A stretch of DNA of 62,264 bases from Escherichia coli (lineage in GTDB: Bacteria > Pseudomonadota > Gammaproteobacteria > Enterobacterales > Enterobacteriaceae): the NCBI RefSeq assembly GCF_003334305.1, contig NZ_QOWS01000027.1. One strand, written 5' to 3'. The position numbers were made by a program, and so were the translations under genes. The notes under the pieces are model-generated. The model had not been told where the DNA came from, made no database searches, and worked only from the letters and a program-made list of their open reading frames with translations. Positions 9,933-18,474 of the stretch are shown here, one piece after another. How positions within the stretch are numbered: the first letter of the stretch is position 1; each line of letters opens with the position of its first letter.

Positions 9933-10017
9933 GTAACATTATCCGGTTTTAACCATCTCATACACAGACCCTGGGACTTCAGTTCCAGGTCTTGCCGATA
10001 AGATTAAGGACGACTGC

Positions 10018-10605
10018 ATGTTACGACGCATGATCCTTTCGGTACTGTTTCTCTGGTGTGCAGTGGCTCAGGCTCTGCCATCAGCTTCTTTTCCACCACC
10101 GGGGATGACTTTGCCCGAGTACTGGGGAGAAGAACATGTCTGGTGGGATGGGCGGGCCAGCTTTAAAGGGCAGGTTATCGCTCCTGCCTGTACGCTGTCC
10201 ATGGAGGATGCCTGGCAGGAAATTGATATGGGAACCACGCCACTCAGGGACTTACAGAACAGTCCTGCCGGTCCCGAGAAGAAATTCCGGCTACGGCTAC
10301 GCAACTGTGAGCTTACAGGTGCAGGAAAGCAGGTCTATACGGCAACCCGGGTGCGTGTGACTTTTGATGGCATTCCCGGAGAAACACCGGACAAATTCTC
10401 GCTGACAGGTCAGGCTGAAGGTATAAATCTGCAGATTATGGATAATTACGGATATCCGGCGAGAGCAGGAAAAAGCATGCCACCTTTAATTCTCAGGGGG
10501 AATGAAGACGGGCTTGATTATTCTCTTCGCATTGTCAGAAATGGTTATCCATTAAAGGCTGGCGATTACTACGCTGCATTGCGTTTTAAACTGGACTACG
10601 AATAA
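10018..10605 (+). CDS. Fimbrial minor subunit (PapH-like anchor/terminator)
   Basis: 195 aa pilin-like with signal peptide and C-terminal FKLDYE strand; sits between the major subunit and usher as papH does. Confidence 0.55.
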   Translation: MLRRMILSVLFLWCAVAQALPSASFPPPGMTLPEYWGEEHVWWDGRASFKGQVIAPACTLSMEDAWQEIDMGTTPLRDLQNSPAGPEKKFRLRLRNCELTGAGKQVYTATRVRVTFDGIPGETPDKFSLTGQAEGINLQIMDNYGYPARAGKSMPPLILRGNEDGLDYSLRIVRNGYPLKAGDYYAALRFKLDYE

Positions 10606-10725
10606 ATACAACCGGAGTAGCCGGGCTCACTGCTATCAGCGATAGCGTTAATAATACATTCCTGAATGTTGAAGAGGGTTGGTTGCGCCCCTCAAAGTGT
10701 TTTTGTATTAAATCGGCTGCATATA

Positions 10726-13236
10726 ATGAAAAAAAATAAATCGACTTTTACCATCAATTTTATTACGTATTCATTGATGCTTTCTCTGGCAGGAGTGCCT
10801 GTCTATGCCGTCGATTTTAATACGGATGTTCTGGATGCCGCAGACAGACAGAATATTGATTTTTCCCGGTTCTCCCGGGCCGGCTATATTATGCCCGGAC
10901 AGTATCAGATGGAAATAAGGGTGAATGGTCAGGATATTTCACCATCGGCATTTCAGATTGCGTTTCTTGAACCACCTTTTTCGGATTCGGATAACGAGAA
11001 ACCGTTACCAGAACCCTGCCTGACACCGGAGATAGTCAGCCGGATGGGACTGACTGAGGCGTCACAGGAAAAAGTTACGTACTGGAATAACGGACAATGT
11101 GCGGATTTCCGACAGTTATCCGGAGTGGAGATACGCCCGAATCCGGCAGAAGGGATGCTGTACATCAATATGCCACAGGCCTGGCTGGAATATTCCGATG
11201 CCTCCTGGCTGCCGCCGTCCCGCTGGGATAACGGTATTCCCGGACTGTTGTTTGACTACAACATCAACGGGACAGTGAATAAGCCGCATCAGGGGAAACA
11301 GTCCCAGTCGCTGAACTATAACGGAACTGCGGGGGCTAACTTCGGTGCCTGGCGTCTGCGTGCGGACTATCAGGGCAACCTGAATCACACCACCGGCAGT
11401 GCGCAGGGGACGGACAGCCAGTTCACCTGGAGCCGTTTCTACATGTACCGCGCCATCCCGCGCTGGCGCGCAAATCTCACACTGGGTGAGAACTACATCA
11501 ATTCTGAGATTTTCAGCTCCTGGCGCTACACTGGTGCCAGTCTGGAAAGTGATGACCGCATGCTGCCGCCAAAACTGCGCGGTTATGCACCGCAGGTCTC
11601 AGGGATTGCGGATACGAATGCGCGTGTCGTGATTTCGCAGCAGGGACGCATACTCTATGACTCCACTGTGCCGGCAGGTCCGTTCACCATTCAGGACCTG
11701 GACAGCTCCGTGCGTGGCCGCCTGGATGTTGAAGTTATCGAGCAGGACGGGCGGAAAAAAACGTTCCAGGTGGACACGGCATATGTGCCGTATCTGACCC
11801 GTCCGGGCCAGGTTCGTTACAAGCTGGTTTCCGGTCGTTCGCGTACCTATGAGCACACCATGGAGGGTCCGGTCTTTGCTGCCGGTGAGGCATCCTGGGG
11901 TATCAGTAACACGTGGTCGCTTTATGGAGGCAGTATTGTTGCCGGGGATTATAACGCTCTGGCTGTGGGGCTGGGCCGGGACCTGAGTAAGTTCGGCACT
12001 GTTTCCGCTGACGTAACCCAGTCCGTGGCCCGTATACCGGGTTATGACACAAAACAGGGAAAATCCTGGCGTCTGAGCTATTCCAAACGTTTTGATGAAG
12101 TGAATACGGATATCACTTTTGCGGGTTACCGCTTCTCTGAACGCAATTACATGACGATGGACCAGTACCTCAATGCCCGTTACCGGAATGATTTTACGGG
12201 ACGTGAGAAGGAGCTGTACACCGTCACACTCAACAAGAACTTCGAGGACTGGAAGGCATCGGTCAATCTGCAGTACAGCCATCAGACTTACTGGGACCGC
12301 CGGACATCTGACTATTACACGCTGTCGGTGAACCGCTACTTCGATGCGTTCAGCTTTAAGAATATCGCGCTGGGGATATCTGCATCCCGTTCGAAATACC
12401 TGAACCGGGATAACGATTCGGCGTTTGTTCGTCTGTCCGTGCCGTGGGGAACCGGTACGGCCAGCTACAGCGGCAGCATGAGCAACGACCGTTACACCAA
12501 TACGGTGGGTTACAGCGACACACTGAATAACGGCCTGAGCAGTTACAGCCTGAATGCCGGCGTGAACAGTGGCGGTGGTCAGCCGTCACAACGGCAAATG
12601 AGTGCCTATTACAACCATAACGGTTCCCTGACAAATCTGTCAGCCAGTTTCTCTGCCGTGGAGAACGGATACAGCTCATTCGGGATGAGTGCATCGGGGG
12701 GGGCGACGGTCACGATGAAAGGAGCCGCGTTACATGCCGGAGGAATGAACGGAGGAACCCGTCTTCTGGTGGATACCGATGGTGTCGGAGGTGTGCCGGT
12801 TGACGGTGGTCGGGTTTATACCAACCGGTGGGGAATTGGTGTGGTGACGGATGTGAGCAGTTATTACCGCAACACCACATCAGTAGACCTGAACAAGCTG
12901 CCGGAAGATATGGAAGCCACCCGCTCGGTGGTGGAGTCGGTTCTGACGGAAGGGGCCATTGGTTATCGTGAGTTCGAAGTTCTGAAAGGTAGCCGTCTGT
13001 TTGCTGTGTTGCGGATGTCTGATAACAGCTATCCGCCCTTTGGTGCCAGCGTGACAAATGCGAAAGGCCGTGAATTGGGGATGGTGGCAGACAGCGGTCT
13101 GGCCTGGCTGAGCGGAGTGAATCCGGGAGAAACCCTGAACGTCGGCTGGGACGGCCGGACACAGTGTGTGGTGGACATCCCGGCACATCCGGACCCGGCA
13201 CAACAGTTGCTGCTGCCCTGTCGTCAGGTGAAGTGA
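10726..13236 (+). CDS. Fimbrial outer-membrane usher (PapC-like)
   Basis: ~836 aa from ATG at 10726 (track ORF starts at 10666); typical usher composition (YNxxG, repeated Gly/Ser-rich beta segments). Confidence 0.85.
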   Translation: MKKNKSTFTINFITYSLMLSLAGVPVYAVDFNTDVLDAADRQNIDFSRFSRAGYIMPGQYQMEIRVNGQDISPSAFQIAFLEPPFSDSDNEKPLPEPCLTPEIVSRMGLTEASQEKVTYWNNGQCADFRQLSGVEIRPNPAEGMLYINMPQAWLEYSDASWLPPSRWDNGIPGLLFDYNINGTVNKPHQGKQSQSLNYNGTAGANFGAWRLRADYQGNLNHTTGSAQGTDSQFTWSRFYMYRAIPRWRANLTLGENYINSEIFSSWRYTGASLESDDRMLPPKLRGYAPQVSGIADTNARVVISQQGRILYDSTVPAGPFTIQDLDSSVRGRLDVEVIEQDGRKKTFQVDTAYVPYLTRPGQVRYKLVSGRSRTYEHTMEGPVFAAGEASWGISNTWSLYGGSIVAGDYNALAVGLGRDLSKFGTVSADVTQSVARIPGYDTKQGKSWRLSYSKRFDEVNTDITFAGYRFSERNYMTMDQYLNARYRNDFTGREKELYTVTLNKNFEDWKASVNLQYSHQTYWDRRTSDYYTLSVNRYFDAFSFKNIALGISASRSKYLNRDNDSAFVRLSVPWGTGTASYSGSMSNDRYTNTVGYSDTLNNGLSSYSLNAGVNSGGGQPSQRQMSAYYNHNGSLTNLSASFSAVENGYSSFGMSASGGATVTMKGAALHAGGMNGGTRLLVDTDGVGGVPVDGGRVYTNRWGIGVVTDVSSYYRNTTSVDLNKLPEDMEATRSVVESVLTEGAIGYREFEVLKGSRLFAVLRMSDNSYPPFGASVTNAKGRELGMVADSGLAWLSGVNPGETLNVGWDGRTQCVVDIPAHPDPAQQLLLPCRQVK

Positions 13237-13304
13237 CGTTATACACGCCGGCGATCGTCTGTATATCCCGGCAGAAAAATGTAAAGAAACAGAGAGCAGA
13301 AAAT

Positions 13305-14036
13305 ATGCAGAAAATGAAACCGGCGCTGAAAAAAACGCTGATGGCGGTAGCGTGTCTGAGCGCAGTACCTGCAGCCCAGGCTGCTGTCTCCCTGGACCGC
13401 ACACGTGCGATTTTTAATGGCGATGAGAAATCGATGACACTGAATATCGCCAATGATAACAAACAGCTTCCCTATCTGGCCCAGGCATGGGTGGAGAATG
13501 AAAAGAAAGAAAAAATCACCACAGGCCCGATTATTGCCACTCCGCCAGTACAGCGTCTGGAACCCGGCTCAAAGAGTATGGTTCGTCTGACCAGTACACC
13601 TGACATCAGTCGCCTGCCACAGGACAGGGAATCCCTTTTTTACTTCAGTCTTCGGGAAATTCCCCCTAAAAGCGATAAAGCAAATGTGTTGCAGATAGCC
13701 CTGCAGACAAAAATAAAACTGTTTTATCGGCCTGAATCCATTAAAGCAAAGCCCAATGCGGTATGGCAGGATCAGTTGGTGCTGAATAAGACCAGTGGAG
13801 GGTATCGGATTGATAATCCGACACCGTATTACGTGACTGTAATTGGCATTGGCGGCAGCGAAAAGCAGGCCAGAGAAGGTGAATTTGATGCTGTGATGCT
13901 GGCACCGAAGTCAACGCAGATGGTGAAATCAGGAACATACAACACACCATACCTGAGTTACATCAATGACTACGGCGGACGTCCGGTGCTGCAGTTCTCC
14001 TGTGGTGGTAGCCGCTGTACCGCAGTGAAGAAATAA
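13305..14036 (+). CDS. Fimbrial periplasmic chaperone (PapD-like)
   Basis: 243 aa from ATG at 13305 (MQKMKPALKK signal peptide); immediately follows the usher. Confidence 0.85.
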   Translation: MQKMKPALKKTLMAVACLSAVPAAQAAVSLDRTRAIFNGDEKSMTLNIANDNKQLPYLAQAWVENEKKEKITTGPIIATPPVQRLEPGSKSMVRLTSTPDISRLPQDRESLFYFSLREIPPKSDKANVLQIALQTKIKLFYRPESIKAKPNAVWQDQLVLNKTSGGYRIDNPTPYYVTVIGIGGSEKQAREGEFDAVMLAPKSTQMVKSGTYNTPYLSYINDYGGRPVLQFSCGGSRCTAVKK

Positions 14037-14063
14037 GAAAGCAGGAAAAAGAATTGTCCGGAG

Positions 14064-14636
14064 GTGTCGGAGATGAACAGGGCAACGATAGGATTTTATC
14101 TGGCAGTTGTGCTGGGGAGTTGCAGTATGAACGGTGTCTCACAGGCGGATGAATTGTTGACGCGGGATGATTTTTTCGTAGCAGATGAAAGCCGTCATCA
14201 GTGGGTCACTGAGCACAATGGGCGGACAGGAGCTCTGAACGTCAAAGGTGCATTAGTGTCATCTCCGTGCATACTGGATACGCCAGAAGTTAACTTCCCC
14301 CTGCAGAAAGATAAAGGGAGATATGTACTCAATCTTAAGGTATCACGTTGTGGTGATGGGCATTCTGACATACCGGAACGCCAGTCAACAGAGCATGGGA
14401 ATATTGTTGTGAAGCAAAGCGCTGTGTTGAAAACAGGCAAAGATCAAATTCTGCTATCCGCATGGCGAAACGGTGGATTAAGTAGAAAGAATTTACAACA
14501 TGGTGATAATCAGATCACTTATTATATAAATGAAGCTCAATATCAAAAGATAGCTAAAACACAAATGCCTGTTACTGCGCATAAAACATCTGACAGTAAC
14601 AGGGGGGTAATGCATTTGAATATAATGTATGAATAG
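14064..14636 (+). CDS. Fimbrial assembly/minor protein (PapJ-like position)
   Basis: 190 aa with signal peptide; position after the chaperone as in pap/pix operons. Confidence 0.4.
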   Translation: MSEMNRATIGFYLAVVLGSCSMNGVSQADELLTRDDFFVADESRHQWVTEHNGRTGALNVKGALVSSPCILDTPEVNFPLQKDKGRYVLNLKVSRCGDGHSDIPERQSTEHGNIVVKQSAVLKTGKDQILLSAWRNGGLSRKNLQHGDNQITYYINEAQYQKIAKTQMPVTAHKTSDSNRGVMHLNIMYE

Positions 14637-14719
14637 GCACAGTACGCTGGCATCATTATTATCTCGTTGTGTCTTAATAACCATCTTGTTACCTCCTTGT
14701 TTTATATCAGGAGAAAGAT

Positions 14720-15238
14720 TTGAGAATAACAGTCTTTTTATTAACGTTCCTTTCCTTTTTATCTGATTTATGGGCAGTTGATATTCCAATCAACATCACG
14801 GGAACGATTATAATTCCGCCATGCCAGATAAATAACAGTAATCCTGTTGATGTTGATTTTGGTAATATCAGGGTGAGTGAACTTGACACAAAGGAACATA
14901 TCAAAGTAGTTAGTTTCCCGGTTTATTGTCCATATCATCAGGGCGAGGCATATGTAAAGATGACTGGACAGAGTATGACCGGGAAAGATAATGTTCTGGC
15001 GACAAATATTGATGGACTTGGAATTGAACTTTATCAGGGGGGGGAGGGAACTGGAAACCATCTTATCTTAGGTAGTGACTCATCCGGGTATGGATACGAA
15101 GTTATTAATGCGCTCTCTGAAAAAAATGTTGAGAGGACGACGTTCACGTTTACAGCAAAAATATATAAGGCTGAAGGTGTTACAATTAATAGCGGGGAGT
15201 TTAGTGCCAGTGCACTTATAAACATAGTTTATTTGTGA
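14720..15238 (+). CDS. Minor fimbrial subunit (adaptor pilin, PapF/PapK-like)
   Basis: 172 aa pilin-like; signal peptide, Cys pair, C-terminal strand ALINIVYL. Confidence 0.6.
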   Translation: MRITVFLLTFLSFLSDLWAVDIPINITGTIIIPPCQINNSNPVDVDFGNIRVSELDTKEHIKVVSFPVYCPYHQGEAYVKMTGQSMTGKDNVLATNIDGLGIELYQGGEGTGNHLILGSDSSGYGYEVINALSEKNVERTTFTFTAKIYKAEGVTINSGEFSASALINIVYL

Positions 15239-15260
15239 GTTTAGTTTTTAGAGATTACAT

Positions 15261-16253
15261 ATGAAATATGTCAAAAAAATATTGGGAATATCTTTCTTTT
15301 CTTTACTCCCATTATCTGCAGAAGCCGAAAGCTACTGTAACCTCCTTTGGGCGAATAATACTCTACCAAGTGCCTCAGTCAATGTCAGTTTTGATGGCAA
15401 TACATCCGGGATTTTTCCTCTCAATTTACAGGCGGGGGGCTTGTCAACTGTAATAAAAAGAGCTGCAAAAAATATGGATACTTTTGTAACGCTTGATGGA
15501 ACTTATCGATACTGGATACAGTATCCGGAAGCATGGCAGACAACCCCTGACGGACTAAAATATCGAATAACCAGCGAACTGGAGGTTTCGGGCACTCAAA
15601 CTGCAGGTGTCAAAACAGTTGTAACGCCTGTAGGTTACCATACATGGGTAAATACATACGGATGCAGGGATGTCGGGGGAACTTATGATTTTGGGGTTGC
15701 ATCTGTCAGTGGGGTGAATATTGAAATAGACAGGGGCACTGCATGGCCGGGGGTTTATTCTATACAGTTACCAGTAAAAGTTGCATATGAAGAGAATAAA
15801 GGGAATTATGACGGTAAAAATGGCGGAGGCTGGCAAGAATTTCCTGTATCCATGAAATCTTTTTCTCCGGTAGACTCTAAAGGCATCAGCATAACGATAA
15901 GCTCAAAGTGTAATGTTGGTGAACAAAGTTTGAGTGTTAATATGGGGGATAATATTACTCCGGATGAAGCAAAATCAGGTGTGGAGAAAAAGGTTAATTT
16001 TTCTCTTACTTGTAATGCCCCGGCAAAGGTATCACTATCTCTTAAAGGTACCGATATCGTCGATGGGGTCAATAACAAAACAAAATGTGGTTCTGGTAGC
16101 TGCTCTCTGAATTTTGATAATGATAGTTCATCTAAAATTCTGGAAGTAAATCAAGGAACATATCAGGTGCCGATTACAGTACGTTTTCAGGACGCAAACC
16201 CCGTTGCCGGAGGGTTTGATGGTAGTGCTGTATTATCCGTTGATATTCTATAA
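15261..16253 (+). CDS. Putative fimbrial tip adhesin (two-domain, PapG/PixG-like)
   Basis: 330 aa with signal peptide; size and last-structural-gene position typical of a tip adhesin; C-terminal pilin-like domain. Confidence 0.5.
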   Translation: MKYVKKILGISFFSLLPLSAEAESYCNLLWANNTLPSASVNVSFDGNTSGIFPLNLQAGGLSTVIKRAAKNMDTFVTLDGTYRYWIQYPEAWQTTPDGLKYRITSELEVSGTQTAGVKTVVTPVGYHTWVNTYGCRDVGGTYDFGVASVSGVNIEIDRGTAWPGVYSIQLPVKVAYEENKGNYDGKNGGGWQEFPVSMKSFSPVDSKGISITISSKCNVGEQSLSVNMGDNITPDEAKSGVEKKVNFSLTCNAPAKVSLSLKGTDIVDGVNNKTKCGSGSCSLNFDNDSSSKILEVNQGTYQVPITVRFQDANPVAGGFDGSAVLSVDIL

Positions 16254-16305
16254 TATATATTGATGTAGTCTTGCTGATTAACAAATAAATAAAGGAGTAC
16301 TTCAA

Positions 16306-17088
16306 GTGTTTAATGATATCAGAGGTGACGTCACATCGGGTTCTGATAGTTTATTGCAGGCAATACAGAAACGAGAATTCAAACCATACATTCAGCCTAT
16401 TGTTTGTGCCAGCAACCATAAAATTATTGGTGGCGAGTTGCTTGTCCGTTGGCATACATCTCATAGAGGAGTAATTTATCCAGATAGTTTTATAGATAAT
16501 ATGGAGAAAGCTGGGATTCTGTCTGAGCTTACTTGTTCTATAATCAATGAGGTGGTTGTTAATTTTGATGGTGAGAATAAATTTAATGGTGAGGATTTTA
16601 TTCTTCACGTAAATGTCGCTCCATCTCTATTGCATAATAAAAAATTCATATCCACCTGTATAAACGCTGCAAAAAAAAACAACCTGTCATTAGTTCTTGA
16701 ATTAACTGAACAGTATTTTTTTACTGTGGATAGCAAAACCATATCCACCTTTCATTGTCTAAAGGAGTCGGGTGTGCAATTTGCTTTAGATGATTTTGGG
16801 ACGGGGTATTCAAACTTATTTTATCTAAAATATTTTACAGTGGATTTTATAAAAGTAGATAAGATGTTTACCCAGGATTTAGAAGGTTGTAAACAGTCTC
16901 GTTACATTATAGAAGCAATTCTTGAATTATCCAGGAAGTTAAATATAAAAACTATCGTGGAAGGAGTTGAAACCATGGAGTTAGTAAATAAATTAATGTT
17001 GCTGGGGGTTGATTATTTTCAAGGTTATTACTTTGGTCAGGCTATTGAGCTATGTTCGTTTATTAGAGAATATAGAAAGACTGTATAG
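16306..17088 (+). CDS. EAL-domain protein (putative c-di-GMP phosphodiesterase), fimbria-associated (SfaY/PapY-like)
   Basis: 260 aa; EAL signature residues present (ELLVRW, NVAP, ELTE, DDFGTGYS, KVD, EGVE, QGYYFG); GTG start preceded by AAGGAG. Confidence 0.8.
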   Translation: MFNDIRGDVTSGSDSLLQAIQKREFKPYIQPIVCASNHKIIGGELLVRWHTSHRGVIYPDSFIDNMEKAGILSELTCSIINEVVVNFDGENKFNGEDFILHVNVAPSLLHNKKFISTCINAAKKNNLSLVLELTEQYFFTVDSKTISTFHCLKESGVQFALDDFGTGYSNLFYLKYFTVDFIKVDKMFTQDLEGCKQSRYIIEAILELSRKLNIKTIVEGVETMELVNKLMLLGVDYFQGYYFGQAIELCSFIREYRKTV

Positions 17089-17152
17089 TGATCTTGTTTG
17101 CTAATCTGTGTAAGTGACTTTTCTTAAAAATGCTCGAGTACACATTCCCGTT

Positions 17153-17851
17153 TTAGTTCCATGCATTTTTTGAGATCCCGGCCAAATAATGGTGCTGACG
17201 ATATTCCTCTGGCATCATATTGTTTAGTGATTCATACGGGCGTTCACAGTTATATTCTGACACCCATCTTTCAGTGATTTCCCGCACTTCATTCAGTGTT
17301 CTGAACAGATAAAAATCGAGTATTTCTGTACGGTATGTCCTGTTAAAACGCTCGATGAAAGCGTTCTGCGTCGGCTTACCCGGCTGGATAAACTCCAGTT
17401 TTACTGCATGTTTCTCTGCCCATTCAGCCAGTGCCAGTGAGATAAATTCCGGACCATTATCCATACGTAGCATGACCGGATAGCCACGGTTTGACGCGAT
17501 CCTGTTGAGTACACGAACCACTCGCAGAGCTGGCAGATTCAGATCGATTTCAATCGACAACGCCTCACGGTTAAAGTCATCAACGACATTAAACGTGCGA
17601 AAACGACGGCCACAGACTAGGGCATCATGCATAAAATCGACAGACCAGCTCTGGTTCAGCGCTTCCGGCGTGGCCAGTGGCGAGGGATTACGCACCAGCA
17701 ACCGCTGTTTGCCCTTACGGCGAAAGTTCAGCTTCAGCAGACAATAAATACGATGGATCCTTTTGTGATTCCACGGGTATCCCTGCCGCCGCAAAACCTG
17801 GAAAAGTTTCGGAAAACCGTATCGTGGGTATCGCTCTGCCACTGCCTGCAA
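17153..17851 (-). CDS. IS3-family transposase OrfB (DDE integrase core), expressed by -1 frameshift from orfA
   Basis: DDE-region motifs (NGPEF, QNAFIERFNRTYRTE, ERPYESL); true coding region extends upstream to the slippery site near 18004. Confidence 0.8.
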   Translation of the reverse strand: MQAVAERYPRYGFPKLFQVLRRQGYPWNHKRIHRIYCLLKLNFRRKGKQRLLVRNPSPLATPEALNQSWSVDFMHDALVCGRRFRTFNVVDDFNREALSIEIDLNLPALRVVRVLNRIASNRGYPVMLRMDNGPEFISLALAEWAEKHAVKLEFIQPGKPTQNAFIERFNRTYRTEILDFYLFRTLNEVREITERWVSEYNCERPYESLNNMMPEEYRQHHYLAGISKNAWN

Positions 17852-17984
17852 AGCGACAATAACGAGTTCGTCAGGCGTGGTATCCGGGCGGTAATGGTAA
17901 ACCGTTCTGCTCAGGTTCAGACTCCGGCAGGCCTGACGGATACTGAGTCCGAACGTCGTTATCAGATGAGTAACCAGCTCACGC

Positions 17985-18263
17985 TTAAAGGCTAGTTTTA
18001 AAGCTTTTTTCGATAACGTCTTTCAGCGCCCTGTTCTCAAGACTCAGGTCGGCAAACATCTGTTTGAGACGTGGGTTCTCGTCCTCAAGATCCTTGATCT
18101 TTTTAATATCAGAAGCCTCCATGCCACCGTATCTGGACTTCCAGTTGTAGTAGGTGGCTTCAGAAATACCGGCCTCCCGGCAGACATCTTTAACGGTTCG
18201 TCCGGCTTCAACTGACTTAATCACAGCGATGATCTGATGCTCAGTAAAACGGGCTTTACGCAT
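17985..18263 (-). CDS. IS3-family transposase OrfA (HTH)
   Basis: 92 aa, MRKARFTEHQIIAVIKSVEAGRTVKDVCREAGISEATYYNWKSRYGG; strong SD GAAGGAG upstream. Confidence 0.85.
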   Translation of the reverse strand: MRKARFTEHQIIAVIKSVEAGRTVKDVCREAGISEATYYNWKSRYGGMEASDIKKIKDLEDENPRLKQMFADLSLENRALKDVIEKSFKTSL

Positions 18264-18474
18264 AGCGATCTCCTTCGTTAGCAGATTGATTATGCCGGAT
18301 GATCTCTAAATATGAATGGCACGATTATGCGGGATACTTACACCCCCGGGCCACCATTTCTCGCCATATCCGGCTGGTATTATAATTACCTCTTTCTCGT
18401 TGTGTAAAAGCCAGCTCAAGGACTGAAAGCCTTAAAATACATGCTATTAACAAATATTAAAAGAGAATAACCTT

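Follow-up and report, generated by a model that had tools for sequence, protein, structure and literature searches.

The window analysed here is a 62,264-nucleotide stretch of DNA which sequence comparison assigns to E. coli; across 30.5 kb, it differs from the chromosome of strain RS571 by four mismatches. From one end, its gene order runs from pgtP and pgtC-B-A through an IS21 remnant, the pix genes, pdeX (a gene for a stand-alone EAL-domain protein and the subject of this analysis) and an IS3-family element to the Druantia genes druE–druA. ISEc18, a broken (frameshifted) phosphoethanolamine-transferase gene and a P4-type integrase gene then lie between Druantia and tRNA-Phe (34436–34511, − strand). 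As the flanks beyond this tRNA gene carry dicD-dsbD-cutA, up to about position 36000, the attachment site of the island is pheU.

The Pix operon and its island

Judged by sequence comparison, the window represents a phe-tRNA island of E. coli that belongs to the PAI V(536) type. In uropathogenic E. coli 536, the corresponding pgt–fimbrial–EAL block adjoins the pheV integrase, so that the two strains share a pgt–pix island beside a phe-tRNA integrase but differ in the site occupied (pheU in the window, pheV in 536). A 2024 study of GI-pheV reported that 536_GI-pheV has the pix cluster, encoding Pix fimbriae, together with pgtABCP, and the operon in the window is therefore Pix. Pix is a P-like fimbria of the pi class that has PixB but no PapI.

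The whole Pix fimbrial operon (9106–16253, + strand) lies 5′ of pdeX, with all of its genes on the + strand: the PapB-family regulator gene pixB (9106–9381), the major-subunit gene pixA (9426–9932), a pixH-like gene for a PapH-like subunit (10018–10605), the usher gene pixC (10726–13236), the chaperone gene pixD (13305–14036), two minor-subunit genes (14127–14636 and 14720–15238) and pixG (15261–16253), which encodes an adhesin of 330 aa. The minor-subunit names pixH, pixJ and pixF are presumably as in Lugering et al. 2003. Within pixA, the segment at 9496–9865 (+ strand) is 58–75% identical to the 536 allele, with indels, whereas the flanking operon is about 100% identical—the pattern expected of antigenic pilin variation through recombination. 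PixG (15261–16253, + strand) matched no NCBIfam model and is named ‘hypothetical protein’ or ‘nuclease PIN’ by RefSeq, depending on the genome; the latter label is probably an annotation artefact.

Between pixG and pdeX lies an AT-rich spacer of 52 nt (16254–16305, + strand), with genes on the same strand at both sides. A crude consensus scan of the + strand, which overall gave no more sites than shuffled sequence, returned neither a promoter-like nor a terminator-like site in this spacer, a silence that carries little weight. An earlier, sequence-only reading of this DNA had placed a stand-alone EAL gene at the 3′ end of a fimbrial operon, and this position was borne out: the operon is of the chaperone-usher type, and the EAL gene starts 52 nt past the pixG stop codon. 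In E. coli 536, pdeX likewise directly follows pixG and is itself followed by IS3-derived sequence.

On its 3′ side, pdeX is bordered by an IS3-family element (17137–18342, − strand; ends defined by homology to other copies), whose transposase ORFs—orfA (17985–18263) and orfB (17153–17851)—match IS3-family models. The end beside pdeX (17137) lies 48 nt past the stop codon and is degenerate, with AG... for TG.... The sequence-only reading had put the element about 20 bp past the stop, which is approximately right: TGTAAGT, exactly the 7 nt with which the terminal repeat at the other end of the element begins, occurs 20 nt past the stop (17109–17115). The 28-nt stretch that opens with this heptamer (17109–17136, + strand), between the pdeX stop region and the IS3 end, may be left over from an IS end that preceded the present one. 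Neither candidate end of the element showed a target-site duplication, and an inverted-repeat search with default seeds yielded nothing useful. E. coli 536 shares this sequence from the stop codon of pdeX on into its IS remnant, which makes the junction older than the divergence of the two pdeX alleles described below. By this comparison, the IS3 junction is old rather than a recent insertion in the window strain, and the native terminator of pdeX, if any, would then have been lost long ago. At the opposite end of the pix operon, a degraded IS21-family istA remnant (7808–8676, + strand) splits pgtA from the pix regulator gene; it is common to E. coli 536, so the pgt–pix junction is old, too.

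Directly past IS3 lies a type I Druantia anti-phage system (18513–29852, − strand) that is complete, with druE, D, C, B and A as annotated by RefSeq. While the window has a full IS3 plus Druantia 3′ of pdeX, E. coli 536 has IS remnants only at this place. As the matching 536 island lacks it, Druantia seems to have joined the island later, via IS-mediated rearrangement. A functional tie between pdeX and Druantia was ruled out, E. coli 536 and most other carriers having pix–pdeX without Druantia.

pdeX and its EAL domain

The pdeX coding sequence (16306–17088, + strand) runs from a GTG start to a TAG stop and encodes a protein of 260 aa with an EAL domain only. In the near-identical RS571 chromosome, RefSeq annotates a CDS with the same coordinates (WP_000481334.1, ‘EAL domain-containing protein’). 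The sequence reads AAGGAG, a Shine-Dalgarno motif, at 16292–16297 (+ strand), 8 nt 5′ of the GTG. Upstream, the frame is first interrupted by a stop at 16279, and the first internal in-frame Met is residue 66, past the catalytic E44 and R48, which a start at this position would remove; GTG is therefore the only plausible start. The earlier proposal of a GTG start with a strong Shine-Dalgarno motif was right in this respect, and the ORF is intact. The exact protein is already public, being listed by UniRef under Q707K1_ECOLX (‘uncharacterized protein’), and was present on at least 1000 contigs. We conclude that pdeX is a real, intact and ordinary gene that RefSeq had annotated already.

In the 2016 work of Povolotsky and Hengge, PdeW, PdeX and PdeY are reportedly the EAL-only proteins. 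By sequence, the window gene is pdeX; it belongs to the accessory genes of E. coli and already has this name, which is credited to Povolotsky & Hengge 2016 by Cimdins et al. 2017 (PMC5635171). For its reference residues, our assignment is built on the latter as a secondary source: the supplement of Cimdins et al. places the EAL domain of the PdeX reference at residues 8–251 and lists the differences L102V, T105A and C151F for Tob1 (PMC5635171). The gene is pdeX because the 536 orthologue at this locus carries L102, T105 and C151, which are the PdeX reference residues; at positions 102 and 105, the window protein shows the residues of Tob1 (V102 and A105). Both the window and the 536 protein are EAL-only and 260 aa long, and they are identical at 243 of 260 residues (93.5%). 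PdeU1–3 of Cimdins et al. were considered and set aside, PdeU1 being a membrane protein of roughly 495 aa and PdeU2 and PdeU3 being degenerate. On the function of PdeX, the searched literature contained nothing beyond Cimdins 2017, and no biochemical, expression or functional study was found.

A Pfam search, as suggested by the sequence-only reading, matched a full-length EAL domain (PF00563; model positions 2–235 of 236, E=3.9e-58). This is the sole domain of PdeX, to which about 14 additional N-terminal residues are joined. NCBIfam profiles gave sub-threshold matches to the EAL parts of multidomain phosphodiesterases; as equivalogs they were rejected for the identity of PdeX, since all scored far under their curated cut-offs and describe multidomain enzymes, and they carry domain-level information only.

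The motifs of PdeX read E44-L-L-V-R48, N103, E132-L-T-E135, D162-D163-FGTGYS, K183-V-D185, E219-G-V-E222 and Q239. The catalytic codons (all + strand) lie at 16435–16437 (E44), 16447–16449 (R48), 16612–16614 (N103), 16699–16701 (E132), 16708–16710 (E135), 16789–16794 (D162-D163), 16852–16854 (K183), 16960–16962 (E219) and 17020–17022 (Q239). Every EAL residue that had been picked out from the sequence at first sight (ELL, N, E, DDFG, K, EGVE, Q) is there, loop 6 (DDFGTGYSN) is intact, and the metal-binding set E-N-E-E-D-K-E-Q is complete, with none of the substitutions that the same reading had named as evidence against activity.

In an alignment of 46 PdeX relatives at 33–93% identity, the invariant columns were Q30, E44, L46, R48, W49, F62, N103, E132–E135, L152, L161, D162, D163, K183, D185, E219 and Q239; they include the substrate-binding residues Q30, R48, D162/D163 and D185. 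Spurbeck et al., comparing active with degenerate EAL proteins of E. coli, described an active-phosphodiesterase signature consisting of QRDD for substrate binding, TE for catalysis and ENEEDKEQ for Mg binding (PMC3484386), and the invariant set of PdeX covers all of it. The motif spacing also equals that of the active-EAL signature which Cimdins et al. 2017 (PMC5635171) print in their supplement, except for an N-to-ELTE interval that is 3 residues shorter and that also shows as a gap in the alignment with YahA.

Among solved structures, the best relatives of PdeX were active phosphodiesterases, namely the EAL domain of E. coli YahA/PdeL and PA3825 of P. aeruginosa, with E values of about 1e-42 to 1e-41. 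The closest was the EAL domain of PdeL (PDB 4LJ3/4LYK/4KIE; E=1.5e-42), in which all catalytic residues align with those of PdeX. The two share about 34% identity, and PdeL differs in being encoded by a core-genome gene and in having an N-terminal LuxR-type DNA-binding domain. An AlphaFold2 model of PdeX, built on the family alignment, reached a mean pLDDT of 89.7 and a pTM of 0.88, and superposed on the Mg-bound YahA EAL domain with a TM-score of 0.90 and an rmsd of 1.6 Å. In silico, then, the suggestion that PdeX is plausibly an active c-di-GMP phosphodiesterase stands: the residues for hydrolysis are all conserved, and the predicted fold is that of active EAL phosphodiesterases. An active EAL domain requires these residues to be conserved, but their conservation alone does not guarantee activity.

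Distribution, alleles and homopolymer tracts

pdeX was present in 248 of 5426 complete E. coli genomes (about 4.5%), in each case as a chromosomal gene; for 246 of these genomes, identity was no less than 90%. pixF–pixG, at 90% identity or above, likewise occurred in 246 of the 5426, the two carrier sets being compared by count and spot checks rather than genome by genome; in every locus inspected, pixG and pdeX were adjacent. Carriers stemmed from human, livestock, poultry and environmental sources.

From pixH to pixG, the window and E. coli 536 are 99.5–100% identical, and pdeX is identical up to nt 16457. Over the remaining 3′ segment of the gene (16458–17088, + strand), identity drops from 100% to about 94.5%, which places a recombination breakpoint inside pdeX, and in the IS downstream it is down to about 85%. 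The 17 amino acid differences between the two proteins, all past residue 52, arise from this breakpoint, and by sequence comparison pdeX alleles are mosaics. The window-type 3′ segment represents the minority allele—48 genomes were at least 99% identical to it, while 191 were at 95–99%—and travels with the full IS3 and Druantia junction (50 records). Between the window and 536 alleles there are 15 synonymous and 18 non-synonymous changes; the resulting dN/dS of 0.30 indicates purifying selection on pdeX. Each full-length allele was found on at least 1000 contigs.

Two homopolymers within the gene are subject to length variation. The first is an A9 tract (16671–16679, + strand; codons Lys-Lys-Asn), of which A8 alleles found elsewhere truncate PdeX at residue 128; the second is a T7 tract (16716–16722, + strand), whose T8 form, present in strain B2, breaks the ORF in two. 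Among the complete genomes opened, two had A8 and one had T8, each annotated as two partial CDSs, and frameshifted pdeX (an 830-nt or 832-nt match) was counted in 8 of 60 evenly spaced complete genomes. As NCBI, ENA and Logan assemblies together gave 187 contigs with the 128-aa product of A8 alleles, sequencing error alone, such as that of long reads, is unlikely to account for these alleles. One frameshifted copy also has E44K, consistent with decay after inactivation. From these minority frameshifted copies it follows that the gene is dispensable.

Proposed role and other fimbria-linked EAL proteins

Based on its sequence and structural model, we consider it probable that PdeX is a c-di-GMP phosphodiesterase at the end of the pix operon which is co-expressed with Pix fimbriae. 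For the enzymatic activity, the EAL domain with its intact site argues in favour; for co-transcription of pixG and pdeX, their adjacency does, with a 52-nt gap and a strong Shine-Dalgarno motif. pdeX would probably be read through from the pix promoter and translated off the distal end of the pix transcript. The protein would act as a dimeric, Mg2+/Mn2+-dependent phosphodiesterase that converts c-di-GMP to pGpG, like the isolated EAL domain of YahA/PdeL. Pix-ON cells would receive extra phosphodiesterase and have lower c-di-GMP, which in turn would reduce c-di-GMP-dependent outputs, curli and cellulose among them, and relieve the YcgR flagellar brake—matrix and motility effects that we extrapolate from SfaY and from what is generally known of c-di-GMP in E. 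coli. Should PdeX be active and co-expressed with Pix, it would be another case of a pathogenicity-island adhesin that brings its own c-di-GMP sink, and a phase-variable fimbria could reprogramme biofilm matrix and motility in the expressing subpopulation.

The base composition of pdeX (33.8% GC, GC3 29.6%) contrasts with that of the pix operon (47% GC) and suggests an origin separate from it; such foreign GC could also mean silencing or separate regulation. A separately acquired module might be an active phosphodiesterase expressed from a promoter of its own, in the 3′ end of pixG or the AT-rich spacer, and hence an island-borne cytoplasmic c-di-GMP sink uncoupled from Pix phase variation. 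We regard this as quite unlikely. A promoter-like site does lie within pixG (15533–15561), and EAL genes of the PdeX clade do occur on plasmids without an intact fimbrial operon, beside AraC-type regulators. Yet the gap to pixG is just 52 nt and contains no promoter-like hexamers, and Pix, Pix-like and F4/K88-like operons have all kept the EAL gene immediately behind that of the adhesin.

Alternatively, pdeX could be silent or decaying cargo: an AT-rich, horizontally acquired remnant with a minor role in most hosts, in the course of pseudogenisation by A9/T7 slippage. The frameshifted alleles at both homopolymers (with the 128-aa product on 187 contigs), the E44K copy and the IS element abutting the 3′ end of pdeX would fit such a fate, which nevertheless strikes us as distinctly improbable: the window copy is intact, either full-length allele is carried by at least 1000 contigs with a dN/dS of 0.30, catalytic residues are invariant down to 33% identity, and the gene has been kept in a Pix-like operon at 53% aa identity. 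Hardly credible is an inactive c-di-GMP sensor or protein-binding regulator after the manner of YdiV or LapD-type degenerate EALs, for although E. coli and Salmonella have non-enzymatic stand-alone EALs (YdiV and STM1697; PMC10333796) and RefSeq labels the analogous SfaY a ‘transcriptional regulator’, degenerate EALs characteristically lack (PMC3484386) the metal-binding, substrate-binding and catalytic residues that, together with loop 6 (DDFGTGYS), are intact and family-wide invariant in PdeX, and the nearest structures are active enzymes.

The closest relatives of PdeX (43–53% identity) are stand-alone EALs that close a divergent Pix-like operon and F4/K88-like operons. The Pix-like operon, on a leuX island, has the same gene order at about 68% nucleotide identity; its adhesin is 64% and its terminal EAL protein 53% identical to the Pix counterparts at the amino acid level, and the latter has kept the catalytic residues. 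Plasmid- and island-borne EAL relatives in E. coli and Salmonella are 43–48% identical to PdeX, and the plasmid relatives are possibly the ‘PdeW’ variants mentioned in bioRxiv 10.1101/2025.05.09.653004. Elsewhere, EAL genes of the clade neighbour a different chaperone-usher cluster, which has an AraC regulator, or remnants of PapB or AraC regulators. Two further candidate homologues, P0003 (76%) and P0005 (55%), were left unused, being identical to PdeX over one part (the N-terminal ~170 and the C-terminal ~110 residues, respectively) and unrelated elsewhere; by sequence, both look like chimeric assemblies.

The EALs encoded by F4(K88)-like operons and other loci on IncF plasmids match PdeX in length and share its invariant catalytic residues; on pF16EC0617-1, the EAL gene of an F4(K88)-like operon has the orientation of faeJ, which it directly follows. 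They differ from PdeX in that the fimbriae are of the kappa rather than the pi class and the genes are plasmid-borne. A conserved gene of unassigned function encoding 182–227 aa often lies 5′ of the plasmid or F4-like EAL gene (L012:8328–9011, L020:9422–9970, L021:9349–9990), its stop overlapping or abutting the EAL start. Its copies share 45% identity among themselves and have no NCBIfam match, and the window contains none.

PdeX-clade EALs may, on a speculative reading that we hold to be rather unlikely, form a mobile ‘terminal cassette’ that has repeatedly joined unrelated chaperone-usher operons (Pix, the Pix-like operon on the leuX island and F4/K88-like operons on IncF plasmids), tying the fimbrial ON state to c-di-GMP depletion, with A9/T7 slippage as a second heritable and possibly reversible switch. 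Neither fimbrial linkage at the level of the clade nor homopolymer switching of pdeX was found in the searchable literature. The practical value of our analysis is modest and consists in the correct name and the non-orthology to SfaY; what interest remains lies in an EAL clade that has become attached to one fimbrial operon after another, and in frameshifts at the homopolymers of a gene on which no experiment was found in the literature.

The SfaY/PapY proteins had been the comparison offered by the sequence-only reading, and the likeness holds for position and domain class, but not for sequence: PdeX aligns with CFT073 SfaY at 24% identity over 83 aa (E=1e-4), which rules out orthology to SfaY/PapY/FocY (PdeY). 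Like PdeX, SfaY/FocY/C1246 (= PdeY) consists of an EAL domain only, and its gene lies beyond that of the adhesin in a fimbrial operon (S/F1C) on a pathogenicity island. Its motifs are unlike those of PdeX, with F-E-M-L-S-D, and K-I-S in place of KxD (tabulated as EMLD/EDDS/SE; PMC3484386). SfaY/C1246 was reported to be an active stand-alone phosphodiesterase that lowers biofilm formation, its loss raising it (PMC3484386), and, encoded at the ends of sfa/foc operons, it offers by analogy a functional precedent for PdeX. In CFT073, sfaY lies after focH and before the MarR-type gene sfaX, whereas pdeX is without a counterpart of sfaX/papX/focX, there being no ORF between pdeX and IS3 and none annotated. 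As judged from these sequences, EAL genes have evidently been recruited to the ends of fimbrial operons more than once.

Fimbria-linked EAL regulators are also known from Klebsiella: FimK has an extra DNA-binding domain, and MrkJ acts via the PilZ activator MrkH. The annotated pix locus contains no dedicated PilZ partner of the MrkH type. In Salmonella, STM0551 (PMC3487979) is an EAL-domain gene in or next to a chaperone-usher fimbrial cluster that links fimbriation to c-di-GMP, and as such a candidate parallel to pdeX.
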